From Gammaproteobacteria bacterium (GTDB lineage: Bacteria; Pseudomonadota; Gammaproteobacteria; UBA4575), in NCBI GenBank assembly GCA_029253965.1, contig JAQWYM010000038.1, positions 914 through 64,913 on the forward strand: a DNA stretch of 64,000 nt, read 5' to 3'. Both the position numbers and the translations under genes were made by a program. Shown piece after piece: positions 8,792-54,753 of this stretch (position 1 is the stretch's first letter; the number at the start of each line of letters is the position of its first letter). The notes below the pieces were generated by a model, which saw only the letters and a program-made list of their open reading frames with translations, was not told where the DNA came from and did no database searches.

Positions 8792-10366
8792 ATGACTGAC
8801 AGAATCCGTCTGCACTATTTAATGCACATAGAACTTGCTGATGCTGAGGCATTAGCTGAAAAAATTCTTATTGAACAAAGTGTCGAGACACCATTAGATG
8901 TCTTGAGTGATGACATCAAAGAAAAGATTCTTGGCAGAATTGAGCTTTTAGAAGAGCTCAGCGATCGTGCCGGTTACTGCCGAGTAGTCTTTAGCTTTTC
9001 AGCAGCTAATGTAGGTGAAAGTTTCAATCAACTACTCAATCTATGTTTCGGTAATGTGTCGATGTACCCCGGCGTACGGTTGCTAGATATTGAGCTCCCT
9101 GAGAGTGTTTTAAGCCATTTCCAAGGACCGCGTTTTGGTATTCAAGGTGTTCGCCAGGCACTGGGTGTTTATCAACGTCCCTTATTAGCGACAGCACTCA
9201 AGCCAAAAGGTGAAAGTGATGCCTATTTCGCTGACCTAGCTTATGCCTTTGCTAGTGGTGGCGGCGATATCATTAAAGATGATCAAAATCTGATAGCGAA
9301 TTTTAGCGCCTTTCAGTCACGGACAACTGCGTGCCAACAAGCATTACAGCGAGCAGCAGATGATAGTGCCAGCCGTTGCCTATACTTCCCTTATATTGCC
9401 TCTAAATATGAAGAGCTGGAGCGTCATTTTGCTTGGCTTAAGGAGTTGGGGCTGAAGGGTGTTTTATTATCACCTCTGATTATGGGGCTGGATCACGCGC
9501 GTGGTTTGGCGCAGCAATATGATCTTATCTATATGGCTCATCCTGCTTTTTCTGGAAGTTTTAGTATTCAAGCTTCACACGGTATGTCAGCTGAACTGCT
9601 TTATGGTTACCTCTATCGACTGGCTGGAGTTGATATCTCAGTATTTCCTAATGCCGGTGGTCGCTTCTCTTTTAGTCAGTTAGAGACAGCAGCTATTAGC
9701 CAGCGTCTTCGAGCGCCACTAACAGGGATTGCTGCAGCCTTACCCTGTCCAGCAGGTGGGATGACCTATGCCGATTTGCCAGACATGGGGCTGACCTATG
9801 GTGCCGACTCAGTGTTTTTGCTTGGGGGTTCTTTGTTACAACATAATGCGGATAGCAAAAAATCGACAGCAGACTTTAAAGCAAAGATTCTAGAGCAATT
9901 TGATGAGGAGTTAGTTGCACAGGAAAAAAGTGTTAAGGCAGTTTCTTCCTGCGAGATTGGTGACTCAGCGGCACAAGCGTTTCTAGAGTATCTGCCAGCA
10001 GTAGATTTTGATTGGCAAGATCGTCCGGCCATTCTCTATAAAAAAGATCAGACACTACCTTTTACCGGTGTGAAACGCATAGAGCTCATTGGCAAGCAAG
10101 ATGAAGCATGTTGCTTTGACTTGCGTTATTTTGAAATCGAAGCAGGCGGTTATTCCAGTCTGGAACGTCATCAGCATAGTCATGTCATTATCGGTGCACG
10201 TGGTCGAGGTAAGGTCTTAGTTGCTGAGAAAAACTATTATTTATCGGCGCATGATGTGATTTATATCAAGCCAAACACGGCGCATCAAATACATAACCAT
10301 GAAGATAAACCCTTAGGTTTTTACTGTATTGTTGATCGGAATAGAGACCAAGCAGAGTCTATTTAA
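8792..10366 (+). CDS. RuBisCO-like protein (form IV large-subunit homologue) fused to a C-terminal cupin domain
   Basis: Residues 1-~400 show ALKPKGES (KPK motif), GGGDIIKDDQNL (equivalent to GGLDFTKDDEN, but with Q in place of E204), PNAGGRF, PCPAGGM and LLGGSL. Residues ~415-524 show the cupin motifs G.YSSLERHQHSHVIIG ... IKPNTAHQIHN. Confidence 0.8.
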   Translation: MTDRIRLHYLMHIELADAEALAEKILIEQSVETPLDVLSDDIKEKILGRIELLEELSDRAGYCRVVFSFSAANVGESFNQLLNLCFGNVSMYPGVRLLDIELPESVLSHFQGPRFGIQGVRQALGVYQRPLLATALKPKGESDAYFADLAYAFASGGGDIIKDDQNLIANFSAFQSRTTACQQALQRAADDSASRCLYFPYIASKYEELERHFAWLKELGLKGVLLSPLIMGLDHARGLAQQYDLIYMAHPAFSGSFSIQASHGMSAELLYGYLYRLAGVDISVFPNAGGRFSFSQLETAAISQRLRAPLTGIAAALPCPAGGMTYADLPDMGLTYGADSVFLLGGSLLQHNADSKKSTADFKAKILEQFDEELVAQEKSVKAVSSCEIGDSAAQAFLEYLPAVDFDWQDRPAILYKKDQTLPFTGVKRIELIGKQDEACCFDLRYFEIEAGGYSSLERHQHSHVIIGARGRGKVLVAEKNYYLSAHDVIYIKPNTAHQIHNHEDKPLGFYCIVDRNRDQAESI

Positions 10367-11421: not shown

Positions 11422-12384
11422 TTAGTTCGAAGATTCTGTTAAGTGCCTCAATAAGGCGCTCCAATCTAGTGACTCTCGGTGCGGGTTATAATTTTTTTGT
11501 AGCTTAAGACACTGTGCTTTGAGGCGGGAATAAAATGACCTGTCGCGCTCTAATTTGATTAGCTTTTTACACAACATTGCTGTGTCTGATAGCGCGTAAT
11601 AGCCTTCATAATTTTCTCCAAGCAACCCCACATTGCCAGCTACCTTAGATGCCAGTATTGGTAAACCAGCAGTAATTGCTTCACAAATAACATTTGCTCC
11701 ACCCTCCAATTTTGAAGAAATTATCATCACATCGGCCTGTTGGTAGAGTGTCGCTAACTGTCTTTTATTAACTTCACCATGCCAATGATAACGCCGATTG
11801 ACTGCTGTCTCTCTGTGTCCTTGCAAGCCCCATGAGGGGCTGTGAGCACGCCCATAATGATGCACTTGTATCCTACTGCTTGCAGGTAATGATCGTGTTG
11901 CTTTGGCTGCCTGAAATGGATTTTTAACATCACGTAAATGGCCAACAACAAGCGCCAGAAAGTGTTTGTTTGGCTTAACTCTGAGTCGCGGTATAGTGGC
12001 TGATTGCGGGATCACACAGAGACGCTGTTTTAGCTCATAAGGTAGGGCATGGATCACTTGGTGATTAAGCCCGAGTAACACATCAGCCTCATGCATCGCT
12101 TTTAATGTGCTGTCATGATGGCTATTAATATACTGGTAAATATCAGTGCCTGAGAGAACAACGATAAGCTTTGCTAAGGGATTGTGTCGTTTAAATTGAA
12201 AAATAGCCTCTTGGCTTCGCCAAGCATGAATTGCGATCATTAAATCCGCTGTTTCTGCACTATATTTCTCGGCCACGGTGACATCATGACCCAGCTGAGT
12301 TAATAGAATAGCCCAGCGATTGGCACTAATACGATTACCATTAGTTGAGTTTACTGGGGCAGGGGTGACTAAAATGATCTGCAT
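11422..12384 (-). CDS. senB: GT-B glycosyltransferase, putative selenosugar synthase (SenB/TIGR04348-like)
   Basis: N-terminus MQIILVTPAP.NSTNGNRISANRWAILLTQLGHDV and a C-terminal GT1-like E-x7-E region (SKLEGGANVICEAITAGLPILAS). It is divergently paired with a selD fusion gene. The family assignment rests on remembered family features and context and needs an HMM check. Confidence 0.55.
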   Translation of the reverse strand: MQIILVTPAPVNSTNGNRISANRWAILLTQLGHDVTVAEKYSAETADLMIAIHAWRSQEAIFQFKRHNPLAKLIVVLSGTDIYQYINSHHDSTLKAMHEADVLLGLNHQVIHALPYELKQRLCVIPQSATIPRLRVKPNKHFLALVVGHLRDVKNPFQAAKATRSLPASSRIQVHHYGRAHSPSWGLQGHRETAVNRRYHWHGEVNKRQLATLYQQADVMIISSKLEGGANVICEAITAGLPILASKVAGNVGLLGENYEGYYALSDTAMLCKKLIKLERDRSFYSRLKAQCLKLQKNYNPHRESLDWSALLRHLTESSN

Positions 12385-12623
12385 GTTTTAATAATTCTAC
12401 TTAATGTTGTGAGTATGGGTAAAATACTAAGCATCGTTGTAACGTATTATTCTCTCACAAGCTTGAACTGATATATTCAAAGATATCTGACATTGGTCTG
12501 TACTCTGTAAAGAACATTACATTAAAAGTTGAGATAACACCTCTGTAGCTTGCGAGCTCGTTTTGATAGACACCGACCTCAGTTTTAAACCCATTTCTTG
12601 ATAGCCTAGGATAAATACTTGTC

Positions 12624-14894
12624 ATGCAGAAAGTACAGACACCAATTGTAAAAGACTTGGTTCTAATTGGTGGTGGTCATGCACATTTAGCCGTTCTAAA
12701 GAAATTTGCAATGCAACCATTACCCGGGCTTCGACTCACCTTAATTACGCGTGATTTGCATACACCTTATTCTGGAATGCTACCGGGGTATGTGGCTGGC
12801 CACTATAATTATGATGACTGTCATATTGATCTTGCTCGTCTTGCTCGCCTTGCTCAATGCCGTATTTATCATGCAGAAGTAGAAGGCTTACAACTTACTG
12901 AGCAGCGCGTTGATGTGGCTGGAAGGCCATCTGTATATTTTGATCTATTATCCATTAATACAGGTTCGACTCCGGCTGTTTCTAAGATCAGTGGTGCAGA
13001 GCAATATGCGATAGCAGCTAAGCCAATTGATCGCTTTCTAGAACAATGGCGGCAACTACAAGCTAGGGTCTTAGCAGCGGCTGGAGAATTTCCAATTTCA
13101 GTGGTCGGTGGAGGTGCTGGTGGTGTTGAATTAGCTTTAGCGATGCACCATCGACTGTCTCAGTTACAAAGCGAGCAGCCTATAACGCAGAATAAGGCAA
13201 AGGTATCTATTCGACTAATTACCAAAAGTGAAACAATATTACCAACCTATTCCAACAGACTGCGCAAACGTTTTTATACTATTTTGCAGCAACGTGGAAT
13301 TGAGATCATTGAAGGCCTTGGTGTCAGCAAGACAGAAGCTAATAAGCTGTATTTAGATGATCAAACTAAGCTGGCTTCATTAGCTAATATAGTGGTGACC
13401 AATGCTGCCGCACCTACTTGGCCAAAAAAGAGTGGTCTTGCTGTGGATGAGGCTGGTTTTATTCAAGTCAATGCACAGCTACAGTCTCTCTCTCATGAAA
13501 ATATTTTTGCTGCTGGTGATATCGCGAGTTTCGCTCAGCTAAAGCAGAAGTCTGGTGTTTATGCGGTTCGTCAAGGGCGAATATTAAGCGCTAACTTACG
13601 GCATTTTGCGCTTAAAAAATCACTCAAAAAATATCATCCGCAGAAGACTACTTTAAGTCTTATTGGTACAGGCGATAAAGTAGCTATTGCTTCACGCGGC
13701 TTATGGACAGCTTCAGGCCCTTCAGTTTGGCGCTTGAAGAACTGGATTGATCAACGTTTTGTTCGGCAGTACAGTGATCTGCAAGCTATGCAGGAAGATG
13801 AAGTCCCAGGCTTTAATACGAAGTTAGCAGATGAGCAGGCCGCTCGTGAATTATCTACTTTAGCGATGCGTTGTGGTGGCTGTGGAGCCAAGGTTGGTAG
13901 CAGTGTACTGGCTCGAGTAATGCAGCGATTACCACAGCAAAGTCGTGCTGATGTGCTGGTTGGACGAGATGCCCCTGACGATTGCGCTGTTATTACTGTG
14001 CCTGCAGGCAAGTTATTAGTGCAAAGTGTTGATTATTTTCGTGCCTTTGTTGACGACCCCTACTTGTTTGGTGCGATTGCTAGTAACCATGCCTTGGGCG
14101 ATGTTTTTGCGATGGGTGCTGAGGCACAATCAGTTTTAGCCATTGCAACGGTACCCTATGCTCGTGAACGAGTGGTTGAAGAAACACTTTATGATGTTCT
14201 TGCTGGTTGCATGTATATGCTTGAAGGCACTGGCGCCATACTCACGGGGGGCCACTCTGCTGAAGGTGCAGAGCTTTCTTTTGGTTTGAGTGTAAATGGT
14301 TTGGTTAAGGCCGATAGTGCCTGGAGCAAGGCAGGCCTGCAGGCTGGAGACGCCTTTTTACTGACCAAGCCAATTGGTACTGGCACTTTATTTGCAGCGG
14401 ATATGCGCGCACAAGCGAAGGGACGGTGGATTGATTCAGCTTTAGATAGCATGATGCTTTCTAGCCAACAGGCAGCACAATGCTTGATGAACTATAAGGT
14501 CACTGCCTGTACTGATCTGACTGGCTTTGGCCTGCTCGGCCATCTATTTGAAATGACTAAGGCATCAAAGGTGGGTGCGGAGTTATACATTGATCAAATT
14601 CCTCTGCTTGATGGTGCGCAAGAGACAGTTAATGCAGGTATTCTTTCATCGTTGCAGCCACAGAATTTGCGTTTAAAAAGAGCCTTGAATAATCTTGAGA
14701 AAGCAGCACAACACCCTCGCTTTCCGCTGTTATTTGATCCGCAGACAGCAGGAGGCTTGCTGGTAGCCGTACCCTTTGATCAAGCCGAGACCTGTCGCAA
14801 TGAGTTAATAAGATGTGGTTATTCAGATACCGCTATTATTGGCCAAGTACTTGGATCAGCTGATCAAACTCAACCCATTAAAATTGTATATTAG
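12624..14894 (+). CDS. selD: Bifunctional FAD/NAD(P)-dependent pyridine nucleotide-disulfide oxidoreductase (NDH-2-like) :: selenide, water dikinase SelD
   Basis: N-terminal ~390 aa carry two Rossmann motifs (LIGGGHAH; VVGGGAGGVE) and TPYSGMLPGYVAG. C-terminal ~350 aa are SelD-like: RCGGCGAKVG (catalytic Cys and Lys; Cys rather than Sec), DDCAV, the PurM-like fold and TDLTGFGLLGH. Confidence 0.85.
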   Translation: MQKVQTPIVKDLVLIGGGHAHLAVLKKFAMQPLPGLRLTLITRDLHTPYSGMLPGYVAGHYNYDDCHIDLARLARLAQCRIYHAEVEGLQLTEQRVDVAGRPSVYFDLLSINTGSTPAVSKISGAEQYAIAAKPIDRFLEQWRQLQARVLAAAGEFPISVVGGGAGGVELALAMHHRLSQLQSEQPITQNKAKVSIRLITKSETILPTYSNRLRKRFYTILQQRGIEIIEGLGVSKTEANKLYLDDQTKLASLANIVVTNAAAPTWPKKSGLAVDEAGFIQVNAQLQSLSHENIFAAGDIASFAQLKQKSGVYAVRQGRILSANLRHFALKKSLKKYHPQKTTLSLIGTGDKVAIASRGLWTASGPSVWRLKNWIDQRFVRQYSDLQAMQEDEVPGFNTKLADEQAARELSTLAMRCGGCGAKVGSSVLARVMQRLPQQSRADVLVGRDAPDDCAVITVPAGKLLVQSVDYFRAFVDDPYLFGAIASNHALGDVFAMGAEAQSVLAIATVPYARERVVEETLYDVLAGCMYMLEGTGAILTGGHSAEGAELSFGLSVNGLVKADSAWSKAGLQAGDAFLLTKPIGTGTLFAADMRAQAKGRWIDSALDSMMLSSQQAAQCLMNYKVTACTDLTGFGLLGHLFEMTKASKVGAELYIDQIPLLDGAQETVNAGILSSLQPQNLRLKRALNNLEKAAQHPRFPLLFDPQTAGGLLVAVPFDQAETCRNELIRCGYSDTAIIGQVLGSADQTQPIKIVY

Positions 14895-14902
14895 AGGACG
14901 TT

Positions 14903-15124
14903 ATGTTTAGTTATAAAGCAATTGTGCTGTGGTTATTTCTTGCAATCAGCTTGGGTTTAGCACCGTATTTTCCTGAACCTCATATCTATCAAAAAATAAT
15001 CTTAATGGGTGATCCTAGTTTTACTTTCGCGCTGATTGATTGGTTCGATCTTGGATTGCATAGTTTGCCTTGGATTGGCTTGATGATCTGTTTCTATAAT
15101 TGGGTTAAGCATAAGTGTTCATGA
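14903..15124 (+). CDS. Small hydrophobic protein (2-3 TM), hypothetical
   Basis: Starts 8 nt after the selD stop. Hydrophobic segments only; no family recognised. Confidence 0.35.
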   Translation: MFSYKAIVLWLFLAISLGLAPYFPEPHIYQKIILMGDPSFTFALIDWFDLGLHSLPWIGLMICFYNWVKHKCS

Positions 15125-27787: not shown

Positions 27788-28327
27788 TTATTGAGCTAAT
27801 TCTTTTTTTAATTGTGTGATAAGTTTTTTACTATAAGGTTTTGTTCTTGGACCAAAATCTTCTATGAGTTGACCATTTCTGCCAATCAAATATTTATGAA
27901 AATTCCAACGAGGATAGGTGCCAGATTGCTCTTCTAGGGCTTGATAAAACGCATGTGCTTCATCTCCCTTAACAACTGTCTTCTCAAACATTGGGAATTT
28001 GACACCATAAGTCAACTTGCAGAAATCTTGAACCTGTTTCTCTGTCCCTGGTTCTTGTCCAAAAAAATCATTGGAAGGGAAGCCAAGCACAACAAAGTCT
28101 TGATCACTATATTCTTGGTGTAGCTTCTCCAGCCCTTCATATTGATAAGTTAGCCCACATTTGGATGCAGTGTTGACTACCAAAATGACCTTGCCAGCAT
28201 AAGCTTCACATAGATTAACCTGCTCATCAGAGGCTAGGCGTCGGAAGTTATGATCTAGTAACTCACTCTGACAAGCCAATGTTAGAGGTGAAAACAAAAG
28301 CAAGATGACGAGTAGGGCGTAGCGCAT
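27788..28327 (-). CDS. Glutathione peroxidase (Cys type), with a signal peptide
   Basis: VNTASKCGLT (peroxidatic Cys rather than Sec), FPSNDFFGQEPG and WNFHKYL motifs. Confidence 0.9.
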   Translation of the reverse strand: MRYALLVILLLFSPLTLACQSELLDHNFRRLASDEQVNLCEAYAGKVILVVNTASKCGLTYQYEGLEKLHQEYSDQDFVVLGFPSNDFFGQEPGTEKQVQDFCKLTYGVKFPMFEKTVVKGDEAHAFYQALEEQSGTYPRWNFHKYLIGRNGQLIEDFGPRTKPYSKKLITQLKKELAQ

Positions 28328-30595: not shown

Positions 30596-31054
30596 ATGTA
30601 TAAAGACCATTCACATTCAAAATGCATAAGTACAGCTCTAGAGAGGGCAGATAGCCTGTGCAGTAAGCGAAATGTTCGCTTTACGCCAATAAGAAAAAAG
30701 GTATTGAGCTTGATTTTAGAACAACACATGCCAATCAAGGCCTACGATATTCTGGCTAAACTGAGTGATGCGGAACACATTGAAAAACCGCCTACGGTCT
30801 ATCGTGCTTTGGAATTCTTAATTGAGAATCAGCTGATTCATAAAATTGATAGTAGTAACAGCTTCATTGCCTGCGAATTCGATCATAAGCAGCATGAGAG
30901 CCAGTTCCTAGTTTGTGATAACTGCAATGAAGTGATGGAGCTACAAGAGCCACTTCTGAGCTCAGCCTTGACTGAAATCAGTGAGAGTAAGGGCTTCATC
31001 ACACGCCAGAGTCATGTCGAGATTCATGGGGTTTGTGCGGATTGTGCTAATTAA
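30596..31054 (+). CDS. zur: Zinc uptake regulator (Fur family)
   Basis: Close to E. coli Zur along its length: RNVR.TP.R..VL, KPPTVYRAL.FL, C.NC..., HG.CA.C. Confidence 0.88.
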   Translation: MYKDHSHSKCISTALERADSLCSKRNVRFTPIRKKVLSLILEQHMPIKAYDILAKLSDAEHIEKPPTVYRALEFLIENQLIHKIDSSNSFIACEFDHKQHESQFLVCDNCNEVMELQEPLLSSALTEISESKGFITRQSHVEIHGVCADCAN

Positions 31055-31055
31055 T

Positions 31056-31481
31056 ATGAAAATAAATCTTGATCGTATCGCTATCTCACTCTCTGCTTTT
31101 TGTGCGTTGCATTGTGTGATTCTTGCATTAGTTGCTGGAATTCTCCCATTATTCTTTGGCTTAGGGCAGCATGGCCATGGAGTGCACGACTTCTTATTTC
31201 ATCAAGTTATGCTAATTTTGATTTTGCCAATAAGCTTGCCCGCGCTCTGGTTTGGTTATAGAAAACATAGAAGGCTACGGCCGATTCTGGTATCAGTTTT
31301 TGGGCTTTTACTATTGCTGATTGTAAGTATATTCGTTGATGACCTGATTCACTCCGGTGTACTCGCCGTAGAGTATGAAACTTCACTGACATTAGCCGGT
31401 GGTATTATTCATGCTGTCGGACACTGGCTTAATCTAAAAGCAACTGCTGCAGCTGGTTGTACTAAGGCAGCCGCGGCCTAA
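31056..31481 (+). CDS. MerC-like small 4-TM membrane protein with an N-terminal CxxHC motif
   Basis: ATG 1 nt after the zur stop. MKINLDRIAISLSAFCALHCV..., His-rich loop GQHGHGVHD, GHWLN near the C-terminus. A paralogue lies at 54236-54664. Confidence 0.55.
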   Translation: MKINLDRIAISLSAFCALHCVILALVAGILPLFFGLGQHGHGVHDFLFHQVMLILILPISLPALWFGYRKHRRLRPILVSVFGLLLLLIVSIFVDDLIHSGVLAVEYETSLTLAGGIIHAVGHWLNLKATAAAGCTKAAAA

Positions 31482-39570: not shown

Positions 39571-40251
39571 ATGAATCCAAAAGTGGATAAAATAGAGGCT
39601 TATGTTTTTTCCATGGATGCTTTTATTAGCAATCTATTTGAATGCATGATTAATAGTGATGTTTTGGAATCAGCATTATTTAGTAATCGGTTAAGTCTGT
39701 TTGATTCATTGAGTAATAGTGAAGGTGGGGTGGTTTTACTTGATTTTGATATCGAGGCTAGCAGTGGTATTGAGGTAATTAGGCAGATCCGATCCTTGCA
39801 TGCCTCACTCCCAATAATATGTACAAGCAGTATTGATGCAGTCTGTAAGATCGGTGATGAGTTGAGGATGAATCATTGTAAGTTTGTGTCTAAAAGCATG
39901 CTGGTAACCGATTTTGTTAAAACGGCACAGTCACTATTATTAGATGAAAAAAACGATCAAGATTCAATAAAAGATAAAAATAATCAGCTTATGCTTGAGC
40001 GGTTCTCAAGCTTGACTCCGCGGGAGCTGGAAGTGTTTTCAGGTTTAATTGGTGGTGAGCGGAGTAAGGAGATTGCCTTTGATCTGGGCGTTAGCTGTAG
40101 AACTATTGAGCTTCATAGGGCGCATATTATGAAGAAGTTAGAGATTGGAACCTTGCAAGAGCTGATTAAAATTCTTCTTCTTTGTGATAGCAAAGATATT
40201 TTTGATTTTTGCAAACATTATTTACATCTTGATTATGAGGCTTCAATTTAA
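39571..40251 (+). CDS. LuxR/FixJ-type response regulator
   Basis: Receiver-like N-terminus (VVLLDFD; PIICTSS; SKS) and a C-terminal LuxR HTH (LTPRELEVF..L..G.S.KEIA..LG.S..T.E.HR..IM.KL). Confidence 0.7.
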   Translation: MNPKVDKIEAYVFSMDAFISNLFECMINSDVLESALFSNRLSLFDSLSNSEGGVVLLDFDIEASSGIEVIRQIRSLHASLPIICTSSIDAVCKIGDELRMNHCKFVSKSMLVTDFVKTAQSLLLDEKNDQDSIKDKNNQLMLERFSSLTPRELEVFSGLIGGERSKEIAFDLGVSCRTIELHRAHIMKKLEIGTLQELIKILLLCDSKDIFDFCKHYLHLDYEASI

Positions 40252-40348
40252 ATTTGCTTACTTAAGGATATTTAGCGGATCATTTGGTTATTCCTGATAT
40301 TATAAGTTTTATTTATAATTCACTAAATTACCAGTAAGCGACACACTT

Positions 40349-40909
40349 ATGTTGAGAAAAAATCCATCAGGTTATTACCCGCTAGTTAACGAGGGCGCTT
40401 TCATTGATCCAACAGCGATTATTTGTGGGCATGTGATAATTGAAGATAATGTATTTGTTGGGCCTTACGCTGTGATACGTGCAGATGAGGTTAATGAAGA
40501 GGGTGAGATGCTGCCAATTCTTATCAAGGCGGGCTCAAACATTCAGGATGGTGTGGTAATACATTCTAAGGCGGGTGCTGCAGTAATTATTGGTCAAAGA
40601 ACCTCAGTAGCTCATCGCTCTATTGTGCATGGTCCTTGCGTTGTCGGCGATGATGTATTCATTGGCTTTAATACAGTTTTATTTAACACACGTATAGGTG
40701 ATGGCAGTGTTGTTCGTCATAATTGCGTTATTGATGGGCTTGATCTCCCGGAAAATTTTCATGTGCCTCCAATGATACATATTGGACCAGATTTTGATCT
40801 AGAATTGATTTCAAAAGTACCCGCTGAATATGCATCATTTTCCGAGTCAGTTGTTAGTGCGAATCATGTTTTAGTGCAGGGATATAAAAAAATACTTAAT
40901 GAGTTCTAA
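40349..40909 (+). CDS. Gamma-class carbonic anhydrase-like left-handed beta-helix protein (Cam type)
   Basis: Hexapeptide repeats. IRADE...I.AGSNIQDGVVIH and VAHRSIVHGP supply His ligands with the H-x4-H spacing of gamma-CAs. Confidence 0.7.
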   Translation: MLRKNPSGYYPLVNEGAFIDPTAIICGHVIIEDNVFVGPYAVIRADEVNEEGEMLPILIKAGSNIQDGVVIHSKAGAAVIIGQRTSVAHRSIVHGPCVVGDDVFIGFNTVLFNTRIGDGSVVRHNCVIDGLDLPENFHVPPMIHIGPDFDLELISKVPAEYASFSESVVSANHVLVQGYKKILNEF

Positions 40910-40997
40910 ATGAATTGTTCTTAACATAACAATATATGAGTACTATTACCTATTGTCTGTGAATGTTAATTAAAAAATTAATTATAGATAAAGTCAA

Positions 40998-41729
40998 ATG
41001 AATAACATGAATAAAATTAATACATGTGAATCCTTAGCGACTCCTTATAAAAAAATTAAGTATTTGGATCTTGATAAACAAATGGATAAAGTTTCCTATT
41101 CTTTTACAAGCAATAATAAACTCTCCGCTAAGGGACTTATAACTACCCCATTCGATAATGATTGGAAGTTGTACCCAAAAAGTTCAAAAATATCTGAATT
41201 TGCTTCAGGAATAGACGAATGTGTTGAAAAAGCAATCACAAATGCTTCAGGTAAGTGTTTTATTGATTTAAGCACTTTAGCTGTTTTTGCAGGAAATGCG
41301 ATGAATACTGAAAGTTTAAATCCGAGTATAGAAGAAAAGATCGTAAATTATATAAATAACCTACCTAATACTGTAACACCAATTGTTCGAATGACTTTTG
41401 GAATGCCTACTAGATTACCTGCAAAATCTATTTCCTATTTTACAACATATTTATATGAAAATGTTAAAAATCCAAAAGCCCTGATTTATTTGGCTAATGT
41501 GGCACCATCTACCTTTATTCCATCAAATAAAAAAGATAAAAACAAAAGTAGTATTGTAGACCTACTGATAGATTTATTGGACTTGGCTCAGCAGGAACTA
41601 AAAGGAGCGCATTTAAAAAAAATCCTTTTGCTATTTAGAGATTTAGTAGAATTTGAAAAAGATAAAATTGCAACTTATTTGTCAGCTACAGGATTAAAAC
41701 CTACAGCTTGGAACCATTCTAAAATTTAG
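40998..41729 (+). CDS. Hypothetical protein (AT-rich orphan)
   Basis: 243 aa, Lys/Asn-rich, no signal peptide, no family recognised. Ends ...TAWNHSKI*. Confidence 0.4.
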   Translation: MNNMNKINTCESLATPYKKIKYLDLDKQMDKVSYSFTSNNKLSAKGLITTPFDNDWKLYPKSSKISEFASGIDECVEKAITNASGKCFIDLSTLAVFAGNAMNTESLNPSIEEKIVNYINNLPNTVTPIVRMTFGMPTRLPAKSISYFTTYLYENVKNPKALIYLANVAPSTFIPSNKKDKNKSSIVDLLIDLLDLAQQELKGAHLKKILLLFRDLVEFEKDKIATYLSATGLKPTAWNHSKI

Positions 41730-41807
41730 CTTTTGAAAATATTTTGTAATGACTAACAAGTTGTATAACTAATGGTAAGTAATTATTACCCTCAAGAATA
41801 GCTTTAA

Positions 41808-43928
41808 TTATATGACGGCATAGTCACTGCTATGCTCAAGAAAGTAATTAACAGCATTATCAATATTTACTCCTGCATAACCTAGTGGTGCGTCTCCATG
41901 ATCGGGCGTGTTTGAGACTGTAGGTATTGTGGGACCACCTACTGAATTAATGAATTCAATTGATAGCGTATAATTAGTTGATTTTTTATCAAAACTGTCA
42001 GTATAGATATAATACTGCTCGCTTTCATTTAGAGTGGTGCTTATTTGCAAATCAGCATTACCCCATTTCCACTTATGAAATAATTTTTTACCAGAAGAGT
42101 CTTTAAGCAGCAAATCAACATCTGCATCAAGGTTTGTCAGGCTTATGGTAACCTCCGTTGAATGTTTTACAAAGAAATTGTAAAAATCCTTATCATCTAC
42201 CGCACTTAGGCTTTCAGTTATCTCTAAAAAATTATTGTTTGAGGATAATTTATAAGCGGTATGTCTATCTTCACCAGGGTCATTCTCAGGTGTTATGTAA
42301 TCAATTTCAGGTGTTTCAGTATTTTCTGGTGCTTTCTTGATCTTCGGATTTATTTCAGTGAATTCGATTGTAAGTTTATAATCAGTTTGATTTTTGTCGT
42401 AGCTATTTGCGAGTATGTAGTACTGTTTGTCAGCCTCTAAAACTGTAGTGATCATTAAATCACTATATCCCCAGCTCCATTCATGCGATAGAGTTTTCCC
42501 TGAAGAATCGACTAGGAAAAGGTCTACATCTGCACTAAGATCAGTTAATTCTACTGTGATACTCGTTTTATTTGCTAAGCTGAACACATAAAAATCTTTA
42601 GTATCTTCAGCATTTAGTGAATTATTTATTATTACTTTATTAAGGCTGGGCATAAGTTGATAGGCTGTTATCATGTCTCCACCAGGATCGTTTTCCGGTG
42701 ATATATAATCTATGACTGGTTTATTTGGGGTTATATTAATGCCACCGTTAAAATCTATCGATAAGGCGTAAGCTGTTAATTTTTTATCATAGCTATCTAC
42801 AGCAATAAAGTATTTCTCACCAGCAACTAATGCTTCGGCTAGATCTAAATCTCCATTTCCCCAAACCCATTCTTTTTTAATTATCTCACCTGTTGAGTTT
42901 TTAAGTGCAAGGTCTACGTCGGCATCAAGGTCAGTTAGGCTAATGCTAACGACTGCATTAGTATCTAATATGAATGAATAATGATCGCTTAAGTCTTTAC
43001 TGCTTAGTTTTTCTTTAATAAATATTTGATTGCTTTCAGGTAATAATTCATAGGTATTTGTTATGTCTTCACCAGGATCTTTGTCAGGTGTGAAATTCTG
43101 TGTGTAACCAGCAATTGCTAATGATGACTGTGTTGAAAGAGCTGGCTGATTTGATACTGAGTTACTGCTATAGGTTTCTGGATTAATTTTGTCAGCTGTT
43201 TTTTGAATTAGCTCAAGGAATTGTTCGTCAGAAATCTTATGGCCCAATTTTTCTAATGCAATTTGTTGGATTATGGCTGCTGCACCAGCAATAATCGGAG
43301 CAGCATAGCTTGTTCCTGATAGGAGGTGACCTTTGACGTTAACATTTTGACCTAAAGCTGCAATATCAGTTAACTCACTATGTTTTTGAGACCAGCTAGT
43401 GAATTCATTATTCACAGTGACTGCTGAAACAGCTATAACATTGTCGCTGGCAGCCATTTTGTTAATTCCATCTGTATTGTACTTATTACTATCATTGCCC
43501 GCTGCGACTACGGTGATGATGTCTAAATCATCAAGTTTTTGATACTCATCTCCATGCGTATTGTTGTATGCATTGCTTGTTACATTTCCAATTGCTAAAG
43601 AGATGTTTACAGCGGCTATATTGTATTTTTCTGAGTTTTCTATAATCCACTGTAAGGCAGATTCAATATGATATACGCTTGCCGTAACTGCATTGTCTTT
43701 AAAAACCTTGAGATGAATAATATCTACGCCACTCGCAACACTCTGACTAACTGCTGCAACTGATCCACCATGATGATTTTCGTAATTATTTGCATTTTTA
43801 TCATTATCTGCGAAGTCATATGAATAAATTACGTTATCATTTTTAAAAGATTTGCTAGCCCCTGTATCAATAATTACTATAGATATGCCGCTGCCATCAT
43901 AAATTCCGTTGTAGTTACTAGCATTCAT
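41808..43928 (-). CDS. Subtilisin-family (S8) serine protease with three tandem C-terminal PPC (pre-peptidase C-terminal) domains and no signal or pro-peptide
   Basis: Catalytic triad contexts IVIIDTG (D21), NHHGG (H52/53) and SGTSYAAPIIAG (S206), with oxyanion AAGND. Three ~117-aa repeats follow (PENDPG.D...AY.L ... DFY.F ... LT.L.ADVDL.L.DSSGK ... W.WG..DL ... YYI...S.DK..T.Y.L.I.F). Confidence 0.85.
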   Translation of the reverse strand: MNASNYNGIYDGSGISIVIIDTGASKSFKNDNVIYSYDFADNDKNANNYENHHGGSVAAVSQSVASGVDIIHLKVFKDNAVTASVYHIESALQWIIENSEKYNIAAVNISLAIGNVTSNAYNNTHGDEYQKLDDLDIITVVAAGNDSNKYNTDGINKMAASDNVIAVSAVTVNNEFTSWSQKHSELTDIAALGQNVNVKGHLLSGTSYAAPIIAGAAAIIQQIALEKLGHKISDEQFLELIQKTADKINPETYSSNSVSNQPALSTQSSLAIAGYTQNFTPDKDPGEDITNTYELLPESNQIFIKEKLSSKDLSDHYSFILDTNAVVSISLTDLDADVDLALKNSTGEIIKKEWVWGNGDLDLAEALVAGEKYFIAVDSYDKKLTAYALSIDFNGGINITPNKPVIDYISPENDPGGDMITAYQLMPSLNKVIINNSLNAEDTKDFYVFSLANKTSITVELTDLSADVDLFLVDSSGKTLSHEWSWGYSDLMITTVLEADKQYYILANSYDKNQTDYKLTIEFTEINPKIKKAPENTETPEIDYITPENDPGEDRHTAYKLSSNNNFLEITESLSAVDDKDFYNFFVKHSTEVTISLTNLDADVDLLLKDSSGKKLFHKWKWGNADLQISTTLNESEQYYIYTDSFDKKSTNYTLSIEFINSVGGPTIPTVSNTPDHGDAPLGYAGVNIDNAVNYFLEHSSDYAVI
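41946..43094. repeat. Three ~390-bp intragenic tandem repeats encoding the PPC domains
   Basis: PPC1 spans aa 279-395, PPC2 aa 409-525 and PPC3 aa 545-661 of the protease. The repeats are obvious at protein level and recognisable at DNA level. Confidence 0.8.
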
Positions 43929-44305
43929 AGTATCTCTCTCTTTTAATTATTAATTTTATTATTAATAAAATAAATATTTATAATCCAAATTTTTTTTACA
44001 AAAATACCGTTAACTCCATTTTATCAAGATAAGTAGATTGGTCACTTCCATTAAAAGTTCCTTTTTTGTTATTTATGCCTCGAACTTTCCCTCTCCCGAC
44101 ATATGGCTAATTAATATAATAATTTATTATTGTTAATATAATACAAGTCAAATAAAAACAAGCATATATATTTATATTAATAAATACAATTAGATTTGAT
44201 TATTAAATCGTATATTCATGTCTTTACGCTGGAGATTTTACGTATCGTCTGATTTAGCTGTAAAAATAGGGGGCATGATGAGCATGCTATGAGGCTAATA
44301 ATTGA

Positions 44306-46120
44306 TCATGCGTTCAATATAGATGAAAAAATTGAGTAGTATTTATCTAGTTTTTTCTCGCCAACGCCATTTATCTTTAGGAACTCAGCTTCATTTTTTG
44401 GCTTGATTGATGCGATTTCATAAAGTGTTCTATCATTGAATATTACAAAAGCTGGAACACCTTCCTGTCGTGCTACCTGTAATCTAATGTTTTTAAGTTC
44501 CTGTAGTAGGTGTAGGCTATGTTTATCAAGTTCATTTTTCGCTGCATTATTTTCTACATAGACCCTCTTTTTCGGCTCTTTTTGATGTTCATCAGCTCTT
44601 GCCATGAAGGCTCTTTCACCACTAATAATGGCATGGCATGTTTCTTTAATTTCTATTGCACCATATTTTTCTAGATTGACTCGAAGTAAGTCAAAAGCGA
44701 TCATTTGGCGTATTAAGGTTTGTAGCAATGGTTTCGAATACTTTGCAGCGGTGCCAAAACTTTTTATCAAATGATGTGATCGAGTTTTTATCTTTTCATT
44801 TTCAGAGCCCCTAAGTACATCAATAATATGCACTACGCCAAAGCTTTGACCTGTCTCTCTTATGCTCATGATGATGGACCTTGCAACCTCTGAATAATCC
44901 TCCACTTTGGGTGGATTGATACAATTGTCACAATTACCACAGGGCTTTGATTCTTCATCAAAATACGATAAAAGTGCCAATCTGCGACAAGAGCTTGTTT
45001 CACAATAACCGACTAATGCCTGTAATCTCTTATATTCCAAGAGTTTAAATCGTTCACTACTGCTACTCTCAAATATCATCTTTTGGCGTTTTATTAGGTC
45101 TTGTAAACCATAGTACATCAGTGTTTCTGAATCATGACCGTCACGTCCAGCACGTCCTATTTCTTGATAAAAGGCCTCAATACTCGATGGTAAGCCAACA
45201 TGTATCACATATCGTACGTCTGGTTTGTCTATGCCCATGCCAAAAGCAATTGTGGCTGACATAACCACATTTTTTTCAGTCATGAATTTGTCTTGGGCAT
45301 TCTTTCTGTATTCAGGAGATTTTCCTGCATGATAGGCAACGGCATTAAAGCCATTTTGTTGCAATAAGTTAGCTACTTCTTCAGTCTCTTTTCTTGATAA
45401 GCAGTATATGATTCCACTTAAATCTTTCTTTGGCTCTAGGTATTCAAGCAATTTGTTTTTAAATCCAGATTTTGCTTCCACCGCTAGTGATAAGTTAGGC
45501 CTATCGAATCCAGTTAAGGTGACATCACATTCTTTGTTGAAAAGATTGGTGCAAATATCAGCACGTGTAGCCTTATCTGCAGTGGCTGTAAATGCTGCAA
45601 GTCTAGCTACTGGGAAATGTGTCTTTAACTCGGATAAAGCCTCATAAGCGGGTCTAAAATCTGCCCCCCATTTTGAAATACAGTGGGCTTCATCAACAAC
45701 AAACATACCAACATTCATTTTTTGTAATGAAGTTATCATGCGCTCTGTCATTAAGCGCTCAGGGCTCAGATATAAAATCTTTGATTTCTTAGAAGAGAAA
45801 CGTTTCCACTCTTTCACATTGTCTGCATATGATTGAGCTGAATGTATTTTGCTAACCTCAATGCCACTTTGTTCTAGGCTAGCCGCTTGATCATTAATTA
45901 AAGCGACTAACGGCGAGATAATAATCGTTGATGTGTCTGATAAAACAGCGGGTAGTTGATAGCATAATGATTTACCAGAGCCTGTAGGCATGACCACTAG
46001 AACAGGTATGCCAGAAAGTATTTTTTCTATGACAGGTAACTGTTCATGTCTGAAACTGTCATAACCAAAATATCTCTTTAATTCGACTTTAAGTTGCTCT
46101 TCATTATGGCTGCTCTGCAT
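44306..46120 (-). CDS. recQ: ATP-dependent DNA helicase RecQ
   Basis: FGYDSFR..Q, MPTGSGKSLCYQLP, DEAHCISKWG.DFRP, the zinc-binding Cys cluster (CRR...C.NCDNC) and a C-terminal HRDC domain. Confidence 0.93.
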   Translation of the reverse strand: MQSSHNEEQLKVELKRYFGYDSFRHEQLPVIEKILSGIPVLVVMPTGSGKSLCYQLPAVLSDTSTIIISPLVALINDQAASLEQSGIEVSKIHSAQSYADNVKEWKRFSSKKSKILYLSPERLMTERMITSLQKMNVGMFVVDEAHCISKWGADFRPAYEALSELKTHFPVARLAAFTATADKATRADICTNLFNKECDVTLTGFDRPNLSLAVEAKSGFKNKLLEYLEPKKDLSGIIYCLSRKETEEVANLLQQNGFNAVAYHAGKSPEYRKNAQDKFMTEKNVVMSATIAFGMGIDKPDVRYVIHVGLPSSIEAFYQEIGRAGRDGHDSETLMYYGLQDLIKRQKMIFESSSSERFKLLEYKRLQALVGYCETSSCRRLALLSYFDEESKPCGNCDNCINPPKVEDYSEVARSIIMSIRETGQSFGVVHIIDVLRGSENEKIKTRSHHLIKSFGTAAKYSKPLLQTLIRQMIAFDLLRVNLEKYGAIEIKETCHAIISGERAFMARADEHQKEPKKRVYVENNAAKNELDKHSLHLLQELKNIRLQVARQEGVPAFVIFNDRTLYEIASIKPKNEAEFLKINGVGEKKLDKYYSIFSSILNA

Positions 46121-46286
46121 TAGTTCTGATCACATGTAAATCTGTTGGTACGAAGAGGCTAAAGTACAACTAGCATCACTGATGGTATTTTGATCATGCC
46201 TATGATCACTTTGCAGGTTTATTGTCTCACAGTTGAATGCGTCAGCCTGTTATTATGCCCGATTGTTTTGGCACAAAAGGGTAGCT

Positions 46287-48023
46287 ATGGAAAAGACGCT
46301 TATCAAGGGTAAAGATAGAGATTTAGAGTCAAGTATTGCCTTTATGCTTGAACAATTGGCATCGCTGGGATTTCACATTGAAGAAGTCTCCTGGCTTAAT
46401 CCTGTTGACGATGTCTACTCGGTCCATATCCGTGATAAAAACTGTCACGCCTTATTCACGAATGGCAAAGGTAGCTCAAAAAAAGCCTGTTTAGCCAGTG
46501 CCTTAGGTGAGTTTTTTGAACGTCTAAGCTGTAATTACTTTTTTGCTGACTATTACTTGGGTGCTGCTATTTCAAAGCAAACTTTTGTTCATTATCCAAC
46601 TGAGCAATGGTTTCAAGTGACTGCCAATCAACGACCAGAAGGCTTAATGAATGAGGCCTTGTGGGCTTATTTTGATGCAGAAGGTAGTTTGGACCCGGCG
46701 AGTCTATTTGATATTAATTCTGGGGTTGGTGAGCGTGGTATCTGTGCGATACCTTTCCTGCAACTATCGAGTCAAAAGATCTGCCATATCCCCGTTAACG
46801 TGATTGCAAATATCTTTGTTAGTAATGGGATGTCAGCGGGTAATACCTTGGCTGAGGCTAAGGTACAGGCCTTGTCAGAGATATGTGAACGCTACGTTAA
46901 GCATCGAGTCATCTCTGAAGGTTTATGTCTGCCAGATATACCACAGGCAGTGATTGAGCGTTTTCCTAAGACTGCCGCCTCGATTCGAGCAATTCAGGAC
47001 TATGGTTACCACCTTAAGGTTGCTGACGCCTCTCTGAACGGCGTTTACCCTGTGGTCAGTGTCACCTTGATCAATCCTAAAGATGGCTCTGTGTTCGTTT
47101 CATTCGGCGCTCACCCCTGTTTTGAGGTGGCTTTAGAGCGCACAGTGACTGAGTTACTGCAAGGACGTGAACTCAATCAGATGGATGTCTTTCAAGCTCC
47201 CATCTTTGACTTGGAAGCTGTTGCCTCAGCACAGAACATTGAAATGCATTTTATTGACTCTAGTGGCGACATCTCGAATGATTTTTTCCGTTCAAAGCCA
47301 GATTATGAGCATTCTGAGTGGAATACTGAGGCCTCAACAGATGAGGAATATCAGATGTTAACTGCGCTTATACATAAACAAGGCTATGAAATATATTGTG
47401 CAGAATATAGCCATTTAGGTCTGCCAGCATGTCGGATCTTAGTCCCTGGCATGTCGGATATTTATCCTGTTGATGAACTGCTTTGGGAAAACAATAATGA
47501 AGGCGCTATCTTTCGAAAATCGCTGCTTAATCTTAAAAAAGGCTGTGCTAATGAGTGGCAGACTTTGCTCGATGCTTTAGAAGAGGGGAGCTATAACGAT
47601 CAGATGCTGGTTGCACAGTTTATTGGATTACTACCAGACATGGGCAGCCGCTGGGCAAAATTACGTCTTGGTGAGATTAAGGCGATGTTATCTCTAGCGT
47701 TACAAAAAGAAGATGCTTTAGACTGGGTTGACTGGTGTTTGGCCCTGGAAGAGTTAACTGAAGAGGAGCTTAAGCACTACCGTTGCGTGAAGGCTTTATT
47801 AGAAATCAAATGGCATAACGATCGAGACTATACTAATTATATGGATGGACTTACCCTTTTATACAGTCAAGAAACTGTAGAGAAGGCGATGGCAGTGGTG
47901 CAGGGCAAGAGTCAGTTTGAAGGGCTATCTGACCCGAGTTTAGCGCTTAAAGGTATGCAGCAGCATAAGTTGCTATTAAAGGCTTATTCAAAGTTAATTG
48001 ATTTGAAAAGTACTATTCAATAA
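46287..48023 (+). CDS. ycaO: YcaO-family protein (E. coli YcaO-like, standalone)
   Basis: GKG.S...C.ASALGEFFERLS, SNGMSAGNT..EA..QALSEI.ER, length of about 580 aa as in E. coli YcaO. I prefer the ATG at 46287. Confidence 0.78.
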   Translation: MEKTLIKGKDRDLESSIAFMLEQLASLGFHIEEVSWLNPVDDVYSVHIRDKNCHALFTNGKGSSKKACLASALGEFFERLSCNYFFADYYLGAAISKQTFVHYPTEQWFQVTANQRPEGLMNEALWAYFDAEGSLDPASLFDINSGVGERGICAIPFLQLSSQKICHIPVNVIANIFVSNGMSAGNTLAEAKVQALSEICERYVKHRVISEGLCLPDIPQAVIERFPKTAASIRAIQDYGYHLKVADASLNGVYPVVSVTLINPKDGSVFVSFGAHPCFEVALERTVTELLQGRELNQMDVFQAPIFDLEAVASAQNIEMHFIDSSGDISNDFFRSKPDYEHSEWNTEASTDEEYQMLTALIHKQGYEIYCAEYSHLGLPACRILVPGMSDIYPVDELLWENNNEGAIFRKSLLNLKKGCANEWQTLLDALEEGSYNDQMLVAQFIGLLPDMGSRWAKLRLGEIKAMLSLALQKEDALDWVDWCLALEELTEEELKHYRCVKALLEIKWHNDRDYTNYMDGLTLLYSQETVEKAMAVVQGKSQFEGLSDPSLALKGMQQHKLLLKAYSKLIDLKSTIQ

Positions 48024-48141
48024 GAATAATACATAGCCCAATACATGAAACAAAAGATTTTAATAGGTAAAAAGCATGCCCCGTAAGTTATTGGTATTCA
48101 TGTATAGTAGCGACGCTTAATACGAATGAAATGATAATGAT

Positions 48142-48483
48142 ATGAAAAACACAGATGACATTAAGTTGGATGCAAAGATACCAGCAGATCACCGCCTAGT
48201 TGAAATAACAGATGACTCTGTTGAGCTTTATAAAATACTAAAGTTCGAAGGTATGGCCAGCAGTGGGGGAGAGGCAAAGGCGTTGATAGCATCAGGTCAG
48301 GTGATAGTGAATCATGGCGTTGAAAGACAGAAACGAAAAAGGATTGTGCCTGGTGATGTAATCGAGTTTGATAATGATAAGATTTATATTCAACTAAAGA
48401 CGATTGTGACAAATGATATCGCCAGCAAACCAGAGTGTGCAGAATCAAGCTTAGAAGATAAGCTAGGAAAGGAATCTTCCTAG
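48142..48483 (+). CDS. S4-domain RNA-binding protein (YbcJ-like) with a C-terminal extension
   Basis: VELYKILKFEGMASSGGEAKALIASGQVIVNHGVERQKRKRIVPGDVIEF aligns with E. coli YbcJ. Confidence 0.7.
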   Translation: MKNTDDIKLDAKIPADHRLVEITDDSVELYKILKFEGMASSGGEAKALIASGQVIVNHGVERQKRKRIVPGDVIEFDNDKIYIQLKTIVTNDIASKPECAESSLEDKLGKESS

Positions 48484-48533
48484 ATTATCACTGATAAACC
48501 AAGTATTAATGTGCAGATAAAGGAATAGAAAAA

Positions 48534-49058
48534 GTGAGAGCTAATGATTGTCTAAGACGAGTACGTTACATTCTTGATTTGAGTGATGACCAAATGATTG
48601 CAGTATTCTCTGAAGCTGAAAAAGATGTTACACGAGCACAAGTAAGTGCATGGTTAAAGCAGGAAGAAGACTCTGATTATGAGGAGTGTAAGGATGTTGT
48701 TTTTGCAACTTTTCTAAACGGTCTGATTAATACATTACGGGGTAAAAAAGAGGGGGCTCAGGCACTGCCAGAAGAAAGGCTGAACAACAATTTAATTTTT
48801 AGGAAACTGAAAATAGCTTTCGATTTGCAGGCGGATGAAATCTTATCTTTGCTAGCAAAAGTAGACCTAACAATAAGTAAGCATGAGTTATCAGCATTCT
48901 TTAGGAAGGCAGGTCATAAACACTATCGTGAATGTAAAGATCAAATATTACGAAATTTTCTAATGGCGCTGCAGATTCAGTATCGAAATGATGAGAAAGA
49001 TCAGGATGATCAAGAAGGGAAGTCAGATAATACCTCAGCTGATGAAATCAACAAATAA
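48534..49058 (+). CDS. DUF1456 protein (YehS-like)
   Basis: GTG start. Duplicated motif N..LRRVRYILDL.D..M..F / N.IFRKLKIAFDL..DE....L, typical of YehS. Confidence 0.65.
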   Translation: MRANDCLRRVRYILDLSDDQMIAVFSEAEKDVTRAQVSAWLKQEEDSDYEECKDVVFATFLNGLINTLRGKKEGAQALPEERLNNNLIFRKLKIAFDLQADEILSLLAKVDLTISKHELSAFFRKAGHKHYRECKDQILRNFLMALQIQYRNDEKDQDDQEGKSDNTSADEINK

Positions 49059-49521
49059 GTTAATGGCGAAAGGGGATCTATTTTTGTTTTGATCTTAAGT
49101 CAACATGCATAAAAAGCCTTGTGCTTTAATGGAATGAATTCACTCTCAACTGCCACAATAAAAGACAAGTTACTAAGTATGATCCACCAATAATACAGTC
49201 TTAATAGACACATCAATAACGCTTATAAATGAGCAAGAAAAAATTATTAGAATAACGCTTCATTATACTAAGGTGATGACTTTCACCGTTGTATTCATCT
49301 CTAGATATAAACAGCGCTCTCTCGACATCAAAACATACGAAACTAAATTTAATATCCGACGAATTTTTTTATTAAGCATTCTTCGTAGATTATTTAGTGT
49401 CTCCATGCTCTTCTAATTGGATTTATGTGGTAGTGCTGCAATTCATTTAAATAATTAATAGTTGTAAAAATTATCTAGTGGGCTATTATATTTATGCTCC
49501 CTTGCTAGGTTGTCGATTAAA

Positions 49522-53351: not shown

Positions 53352-53396
53352 TGTGTTCCTTCATGCTAGCTCGTCTTATGTTACCTGTTAGGCCTT

Positions 53397-53419
53397 GAAA
53401 TGATACAATGTAACATCGT
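53397..53419. promoter_or_regulatory. Zur-box-like site in the divergent promoter
   Basis: GAAATGATACAATGTAACATCGT compared with the consensus GAAATGTTATAnTATAACATTTC. Lies between the ABC ATPase gene and the DUF3299-like gene. Confidence 0.5.
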
Positions 53420-53450
53420 TGACTAAAACCAGTTATTTTGATTAGGCCTG

Positions 53451-54664: not shown

Positions 54665-54753
54665 GCCATGCTTTTCCAATTACTAAGGCACTTGGCTAGG
54701 GTGACGTTGTCAACTGTCTGAGTCTTTCTATTAGTGTGTGTCATCAAACAGAC

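Follow-up and report, generated by a model that had tools for sequence, protein, structure and literature searches.

What does a bacterium make with a selenosugar synthase and a selenophosphate synthetase when the genes that would carry the selenosugar on to the antioxidant selenoneine are missing from the locus? The question is raised by a divergent senB–senC gene pair in a 64,000-nucleotide stretch (the window) of a metagenome-assembled genome (MAG) from an uncultured marine gammaproteobacterium of GTDB lineage UBA4575 (assembly GCA_029253965.1, contig JAQWYM010000038.1, positions 914 to 64,913). Comparative sequence analysis leads us to a probability of about 85% that the pair is a functional cassette derived from a selenoneine cluster by deletion of senA and egtD. 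Its present physiological product would most likely be the selenosugar itself or a compound that some SenA-unrelated enzyme derives from it. An initial annotation of this DNA had placed the two genes, a 239-bp divergent spacer and a 73-residue open reading frame (ORF) 8 nt downstream, all of which we confirmed on the sequence, and had stated that senA is not in the window. Our searches agree: tblastn found no senA- or egtD-like sequence in any frame of the window (best E = 2.9), domain scans detected no DinB_2 or FGE-sulfatase ORF in it, and neither the selenoxide synthase OvsA nor the methyltransferase OvsM was found there.

11422-12384, minus strand: senB, 320 amino acids (aa), a GT-B-fold selenium glycosyltransferase (selenosugar synthase)
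12385-12623, no strand: divergent spacer between senB and senC, 239 bp, the position that senA–egtD occupies in sister lineages
12624-14894, plus strand: senC, 756 aa, a fusion of a flavoprotein resembling type-II NADH dehydrogenase (NDH-2) to SelD

The 320-aa protein, whose N-terminus reads MQIILVTPAPVNSTNGNRISANRWA, is assigned as a genuine SenB and predicted to be catalytic. It scores 355.5 bits against the NCBIfam equivalog model TIGR04348 (cut-off 300), matching positions 1–309 of 310, and all other glycosyltransferase models fall far under their own cut-offs; generic Glycos_transf_1 domains are also detected. Solved Variovorax paradoxus SenB structures match at an E value of 4e-41, and identity to the characterized V. 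paradoxus enzyme is 34%. Mutagenesis of that enzyme has defined N20, T23, H58, R61, T83, T85, R155, K158, E231 and E239 as residues that bind uridine diphosphate (UDP), sugar or selenophosphate or that cleave the Se–P bond (PMC10891094, PMC10702425). By alignment, N17, S20, H53, R56, S78, T80, D81, Q127, R151, K154, E227 and E235 of the window protein correspond to N20, T23, H58, R61, T83, T85, D86, Q131, R155, K158, E231 and E239 of V. paradoxus; the mutagenesis-defined residues are all kept, with T23S (S20) and T83S (S78) as the sole changes. The sugar-donor motif EGGAHV reads EGGANV, and the same His-to-Asn replacement is present in the SenBs of two bona fide gammaproteobacterial sen clusters, L006 and L007 (L-numbers label the compared genome and metagenome loci, whose flanks were readable to 10 kb). 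An identical protein, from a MAG filed as 'Gammaproteobacteria bacterium', has the NCBI accession MDG0996194.1 and is called 'selenoneine biosynthesis selenosugar synthase SenB' by the Prokaryotic Genome Annotation Pipeline (PGAP); MDG0996195.1, 'selenide, water dikinase SelD', is the fusion. Because PGAP already names both proteins, the gene names are not new. Where the initial annotation wrote 'SenB-like', the SenB identity stands and mere likeness gives way to a full equivalog: the model search that it proposed placed the protein above the family threshold, not below it.

Comparison with related loci indicates how the pair arose. The closest relatives of the window fusion (L003, L091 and L093–L097, 82–99% identity) keep the whole neighbourhood, and in them too the C–Se bond-forming iron enzyme of SenA or OvsA type (hereafter NHISS) is missing. 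SenA was found neither within 10 kb on the full-flank contigs of this clade (L003, L091 and L093–L096) nor on the shorter contigs that span the pair. Across at least nine independent contigs from four sub-lineages, senB and the fusion lie ~240 bp apart, and every pair-spanning clade contig (L001/L002, L003, L091 and L093–L097) keeps the pair; clade contigs reach 487 kb. The pairing of senB with the fusion is thus not chance. Eight sister lineages (L090, L033, L123, L043, L052, L053, L055 and L114) share one frame, in which CSD comes first and minus-strand senB diverges from senA, egtD, the Ndh–SelD fusion, orf73 and an SLT-LysM gene. Their fusions are ~60% identical to that of the window, and their SenBs are 47–61% identical to the closer of two queries (window or L006). 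Set against this frame, the sen locus of the window clade differs in nothing but the missing senA and egtD.

In neighbour-joining trees, for the fusion as for SenB, the window clade lies inside the senA-linked radiation, with monophyly in 200/200; the sequence closest to it is L090 in the case of the fusion and L053 in that of SenB. Because the sister lineages carry the same frame with senA–egtD in place and the clade nests within senA-linked sequences, the most parsimonious account is that a locus inherited vertically lost ~2.3 kb by deletion. A protein-level search of the 239-bp spacer for senA or egtD remnants, as a deletion scar, gave chance-level matches only. Two genes upstream of senB lies a 524-aa RuBisCO-like protein (RLP) with a C-terminal cupin (8792-10366, plus strand). 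Its best NCBIfam match is an MtnW-type enolase at 187 bits, far under the cut-off of 409. The whole window clade keeps this gene, as does L043 (51% identity), where RLP-cupin and HIT genes are additional members of the upstream flank. We rejected this gene as a replacement for senA, since in L043 it accompanies a complete sen cluster.

A sen-type NHISS is rarely missing from beside senB. A SenB-centred sample of 80 metagenome loci contained five clade members, all without NHISS. Outside the clade, 53 loci were informative (at least 600 bp of upstream flank), and NHISS lies immediately upstream of senB in 51 of them, at a median gap of ~135 bp. The two exceptions, L132 and L159, have neither NHISS nor SelD; these orphan SenBs come from DNA with a G+C content of ~0.65 and flanks seen for 10 kb upstream and for 6.3 and 2.6 kb downstream. 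Identity of SenB to its window counterpart declines from 67% within the clade to at most 48% outside it. A second, NHISS-centred sample comprised the 80 loci of GTDB species representatives most similar to the sen-cluster SenA queried, and included sister lineages at 57–59% identity. Here senB is adjacent in 76 of 80, and the other four lie on contigs that end early. A sen-type NHISS therefore stands next to senB at 76/76 informative genome loci and 51/53 metagenome loci (127/129), and among sen-type systems an NHISS-less senB–senC pair appears unique to the window clade. Matching NHISS loci to the window by tetranucleotide composition and G+C content retrieved relatives that all have their own senB, and was uninformative. 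L072, a candidate NHISS without sen neighbours at similar G+C content, was rejected: its flanks fit the L059–L071 layout, and its upstream sequence extends for no more than 96 bp.

The pair that remains is under long-term purifying selection, with a ratio of nonsynonymous to synonymous substitution (dN/dS) of ~0.1. Between the window and L003, where dS is saturated at 1.2–1.5, the dN/dS values of senB (0.12), the fusion (0.076) and orf73 (0.125) fall within the range of the flanking housekeeping genes. The spacer measures 239 bp in the window, 239 bp in L003 and 230 bp in L091, and despite the saturated dS the blocks beside both start codons are conserved in all three. One of these blocks, conserved in L003 and L091, contains a promoter-like site:

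12394-12423, minus strand: promoter-like senB site TTTACC-18-TAGAAT, from a consensus scan only; its function would be that of a promoter

The site ends just 9 nt before the senB ATG, which suggests a near-leaderless or leaderless senB mRNA.

SenB is also estimated to have evolved faster after the loss of senA–egtD. Root-to-tip distance is 0.85 for clade SenBs against 0.70 ± 0.03 for 48 others. All clade SenBs pass TIGR04348, at 355–374 bits (366–374 for those other than the window's), and sister and ovs-type SenBs score 378–413. Clade-specific replacements occur at six positions that are otherwise at least 90% conserved. Two of them, D155N (Asp in 73/73 others) and R158Q, adjoin the catalytic Lys; V. 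paradoxus SenB has Ser and Thr at these positions, so residues 155 and 158 are not essential for activity.

The partner of SenB contains the following elements:

12651-13772, plus strand: flavoprotein domain (Ndh/TIGR03169), residues 10–383, with two GxGxxG motifs
13866-14885, plus strand: SelD domain, residues 415–754, 156 bits against Escherichia coli SelD (3u0o)
13872-13892, plus strand: catalytic loop C417-G-G-C420-G-A-K423, the CxxC...K motif of Ndh–SelD fusions

The N-terminal half matches TIGR03169 at 457.9 bits (cut-off 310) and Pyr_redox_2 over residues 10–318, with dinucleotide motifs GGGHAH at 16–21 and GGGAGG at 162–167; the C-terminal half matches TIGR00476 at 294.2 bits (cut-off 125) together with AIRS and AIRS_C. 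The searches against SelD and Pyr_redox_2 models that had been proposed thus both return matches, and the earlier description of an NDH-2/SQR-like flavoprotein with two Rossmann motifs joined to a complete SelD with the context CGGCGAK was correct. Against TIGR04369 ('fusion_not_SelD') the protein scores 477.9 bits and does not reach the cut-off of 700, so the C-terminal half is taken as a true SelD. In the alignment with E. coli SelD, C420 and K423 fall on the catalytic Cys17 and Lys20, and D453, D470, D493 and D631 on the Asp ligands D51, D68, D91 and D227.

Among 54 aligned fusions, C417, C420 and K423 are invariant (54/54). The flavoprotein domain has an invariant His (H67) and no invariant Cys; because C66 is present in only 33 of the 54, a thiol–disulfide reductase mechanism using a conserved redox Cys within that domain is unlikely. 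Its nearest solved folds are type-II NADH dehydrogenases (9pxk, 4nwz and 5na1), FSP1 and AIF, with 8yo8 also among the entries. These share the two-Rossmann FAD/NAD(P)H core and likewise have no redox-active Cys pair; unlike them, the window domain has no C-terminal membrane or quinone module and is fused to SelD instead. Fusions of this kind have been described before, with the same N-terminal flavoprotein, a Cys-type SelD, a CxxC loop and a marine habitat (PMC2398784, PMC4561486, TIGR03169). In a 2008 survey, which described the CxxC hallmark, they made up ~40% of the Cys-type SelDs in ocean metagenomes, all with CxxC, and were not assigned a role (PMC2398784); elsewhere selenocysteine (Sec) machinery was reported in genomes with NADH–SelD fusions (PMC4561486). 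Whereas those papers left the role open or tied it to Sec, here and in most sampled relatives the fusion lies within selenosugar, selenoneine or ovoselenol gene sets.

The genomic contexts point to the Ndh–SelD fusion as the ordinary SenC of gammaproteobacterial sen and ovs clusters rather than something special to the window. A protein search returned more than 8000 matches, and the top 120, which we looked at, all have the same ~753-aa architecture. Motiliproteus (L006) and a 375-kb MAG contig (L007) carry minus-strand senB divergent from plus-strand NHISS, egtD in L006, and the fusion; against the SenA model, whose cut-off is 420 bits, their NHISS proteins reach 505 and 514. L090 has the same fusion architecture beside senA, and an Ndh domain adjoins SelD in 55 of the 80 NHISS-centred loci. 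In L050 (Halomonadaceae), an NHISS 96% identical to the crystallized H. utahensis OvsA is accompanied by a methyltransferase, senB and the same fusion. Since the fusion occurs in both sen and ovs clusters, it would serve both the selenoneine and the ovoselenol pathways. Our literature search found no paper linking the Ndh–SelD fusion to SenC. What had been read as a senB–senC pair distinguished by a SelD fused to a reductase is therefore borne out as to the pair and as to the fusion with an NADH-dehydrogenase-like flavoprotein, but the fusion is the usual gammaproteobacterial SenC and no special feature.

These assignments suggest a route in three steps. The flavoprotein domain, using NAD(P)H and FAD, would supply reduced selenium by reducing selenium bound at the Cys417-x-x-Cys420 loop of its own SelD, so that selenide is released straight into the SelD active site; the proposed electron chain to this loop follows from the lack of an invariant Cys in the flavoprotein domain and from the invariance of C417 and C420. 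The SelD domain, judging from its family, would then use ATP to convert selenide to selenophosphate. Finally, family membership and conserved residues predict that SenB joins a UDP-sugar, probably UDP-N-acetylglucosamine (UDP-GlcNAc), to selenophosphate and that hydrolysis of the Se–P bond proceeds via Lys154, giving a 1-seleno-β-D-sugar. In the sister lineages, senA and egtD between senB and senC would convert this selenosugar to selenoneine; in the window clade, both would have been deleted in situ.

Several observations weigh against a selenosugar-producing cassette of this kind. The DNA inspected is 64 kb of a MAG, so an NHISS may lie elsewhere, and OvsA-type enzymes are typical of aquatic gammaproteobacteria. 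The Marinobacter loci L173 and L174 have plus-strand senB convergent with a minus-strand Ndh–SelD fusion, an adjacent ATP-binding cassette (ABC) importer and no NHISS within 10 kb. In Marinobacter the senBC genes are chromosomally apart from ovsA and ovsM, the product is ovoselenol and a ΔovsA mutant accumulates seleno-N-acetylglucosamine (SeGlcNAc); the four ovs genes consistently co-occur (PMC11030361). The fusion could also, or mainly, feed Sec or selenouridine synthesis (PMC4561486), and the reductase role ascribed to the flavoprotein domain is putative. The trees are neighbour-joining only, the saturated dS makes the dN/dS values approximate, and the faster evolution of SenB could reflect relaxed constraint. 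The Marinobacter precedent also bears on novelty: the stand-alone senB–senC pair put forward earlier as a candidate module is real, but as an arrangement it was already known.

The strongest competitor, which we rate as possible at appreciably less than even odds, is a split pathway in which the pair feeds a distant C–Se enzyme, either OvsA with OvsM (ovoselenol) or a relocated SenA with EgtD (selenoneine), as in Marinobacter vinifirmus. The separate senBC and ovsAM genes of Marinobacter and the SeGlcNAc of its ΔovsA mutant (PMC11030361) give it a direct model, L173 and L174 repeat the NHISS-less arrangement, and the window organism belongs to the aquatic gammaproteobacteria, in which OvsA is concentrated. 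Yet the ovs-type SenB and SenC sequences (L050 and Marinobacter) form a group of their own (200/200) apart from the window clade, which has sen-type sequences as its closest kin; the clade would consequently have needed to acquire ovsAM alone. The layout also differs, divergent here and convergent in Marinobacter. A relocated senA is disfavoured by the almost unbroken linkage of sen-type NHISS to senB (127/129), by the co-loss of egtD, by the acceleration of SenB and by the absence of any NHISS-only locus among the best 80 NHISS loci of GTDB species representatives. We regard it as improbable that the fusion is instead kept mainly as a housekeeping selenophosphate synthetase for Sec or selenouridine, with senB a hold-over in a minor or other role. 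Sec machinery has been found in genomes with NADH–SelD fusions (PMC4561486), fusions that lack a senB neighbour exist (L092) and SenB is the faster-evolving partner. Against this, SenB has a dN/dS of 0.12 (over saturated dS) with intact catalytic residues, senB holds the same place with respect to senC in four sub-lineages, and all clade SenBs pass the equivalog cut-off at 355–374 bits. No selA, selB, selU or tRNA-Sec lies in the window: in line with the initial annotation, SelA, SelB and SelU domains are missing from the ~50 window ORFs scanned and the window Gpx (27788-28327) has Cys (NTASKCGLT); no tRNA of any kind was found in the window, and its Rfam scan gave no match. Least probable by a wide measure is an ordinary family 4 glycosyltransferase (GT4) beside selD by chance, with no functional link. 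The generic Glycos_transf_1 domains would fit it, but the TIGR04348 score exceeds its cut-off where other models fall far short, the catalytic residues are kept, the pairing is conserved and SenB nests among cluster-linked SenBs in the tree, so that this reading is effectively refuted.

We therefore favour the senB–senC cassette left by deletion of senA–egtD, with claims of differing strength about its consequences. In-situ deletion, purifying selection on the pair and the near-universal NHISS–senB adjacency elsewhere lend more credence to the suggestion, made in the initial annotation, of a free selenosugar or another selenometabolite as the end product. The odds that the genome has no SenA- or OvsA-type partner anywhere are evenly balanced in our judgement, and we think it about as likely as not that the pathway ends with the selenosugar. 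The broadest version is tentative, and we lean against it: that a widespread uncultured marine gammaproteobacterial clade has turned the selenoneine pathway into a stand-alone selenosugar pathway, with a terminal selenometabolite that would be a selenosugar (for example SeGlcNAc) or the product of an EgtB-unrelated enzyme.

Characterized systems frame the differences. The selenoneine cluster senA–senB–senC was defined in V. paradoxus with a criterion of co-localization within 5 kb (Kayrouz & Seyedsayamdost 2022, bioRxiv 10.1101/2022.04.13.486033). The window shares with V. paradoxus and the gammaproteobacterial sen clusters (L006, L007, L043 and L090) an orthologous SenB, a SenC-type selenophosphate supply and a senB divergent from the senC operon, and with the marine sister lineages also the flanking synteny; it differs in that no SenA co-localizes, the selenoxide synthase gene senA and the hercynine synthase gene egtD being missing from the locus and from the 64 kb. 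With the Marinobacter split system it shares the two-gene senB and Ndh–SelD arrangement without a nearby NHISS and an aquatic gammaproteobacterial host. The Marinobacter pair, however, is convergent and has an ABC importer, whereas the window pair is divergent and has no transporter; the Marinobacter and Halomonas pairs form the separate phylogenetic group noted above, and Marinobacter has its partner enzymes elsewhere in the genome.

Some compared loci have features of their own. In L173 (8297-9816), L174 (8262-9784), L006 (4496-6048) and L050 (8993-9850), senB has beside it an ABC importer whose binding protein is of the phosphonate type; this importer is not present in the window or its clade. 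Kayrouz reportedly noted a selenium oxyanion transporter in 2022, and the senB-linked importer is probably the same. In L090, a CARME-like gene (carnosine N-methyltransferase family; 1-936) sits ~4 kb from a complete senB–senA–egtD–senC set and could methylate an imidazole N of a selenoneine-type product. L073, L075–L078, L082, L083 and L088 (Planctomycetota, Poribacteria, Polyangiales and Gemmatimonadota) have SenA and SenB collinear on one strand and no SelD in the flanks; they matched a chimeric SenB + NHISS query end to end. Theirs is another layout, or possibly a fusion. The egtD–senC spacer of L043 (12252-12333; a complete-chromosome MAG) is filled by at least six copies of an 11-bp tandem repeat, AAAACTAAGTA.

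Downstream of the fusion, the next ORF is a conserved neighbour:

14903-15124, plus strand: orf73, small membrane protein starting 8 nt past the fusion stop codon

It overlaps the next gene, which starts at 15115, and has no Pfam or NCBIfam match. Homologues (~73 aa, motif LGLAP..PEPH...IDWFDL..H..PW) directly follow the fusion in L043, L052, L053, L055 and L114; in L090 two genes separate the homologue from the fusion, and SLT-LysM still adjoins it. In the window and in all six of these loci it is always just upstream of the SLT-LysM (MltD-like) gene. Membership of orf73 in the module is not supported, because in L090 it is detached from senC yet precedes SLT-LysM; by synteny it is a conserved neighbour travelling with SLT-LysM and not with senC.

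Elsewhere in the window, metal-homeostasis genes are concentrated at 30596-31481, 51437-55374 and 58631-61349: a Fur-family regulator overlapping a MerC-family gene, a second MerC, ZrgA, DUF3299 with a MacB-type ABC system, and an OEP and CusB-like (HMBD) efflux pair. A δ-class carbonic anhydrase, of a class mainly known in diatoms, is encoded at 56717-57586 on the minus strand (PF10563, 254 bits). Two stretches of low G+C content (40000-46000 and 48000-52000; 0.34–0.37 against 0.42–0.45 elsewhere) may be acquired DNA, and contain a PPC-domain subtilase (41808-43928) and a 477-aa ORF without a Pfam match (49510-50943). At 46233-49058, on the plus strand, a stand-alone YcaO protein (YcaO_C domain) precedes a 113-aa ORF (48142-48483), after which comes a DUF1456 protein.

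With its parts already annotated, what is new in this locus is its evolutionary context: a selenoneine cluster that an abundant uncultured marine clade has shortened and retained as a selenosugar module of two genes. Because selenoneine and ovoselenol gene sets regularly have the Ndh–SelD fusion as their SenC, and such fusions made up ~40% of the Cys-type SelDs in ocean metagenomes in 2008, part of the marine SelD signal may reflect small-molecule selenium metabolism and not selenoproteins. If OvsA or SenA is encoded elsewhere in the genome, the locus is merely another split cluster, of modest interest; it becomes considerably more interesting if NHISS is absent genome-wide. To our knowledge, the dedicated small-molecule products of bacterial selenium metabolism number only three: selenosugars, which occur as intermediates, selenoneine and ovoselenol. 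A pathway that ends at the selenosugar would be the first such natural bacterial pathway. A lineage that discarded senA–egtD and kept the selenosugar pair under selection amounts to a natural experiment, and it suggests that selenosugars may be useful in their own right, perhaps in redox buffering or as a form in which selenium is stored or exported, or may feed an undiscovered enzyme.

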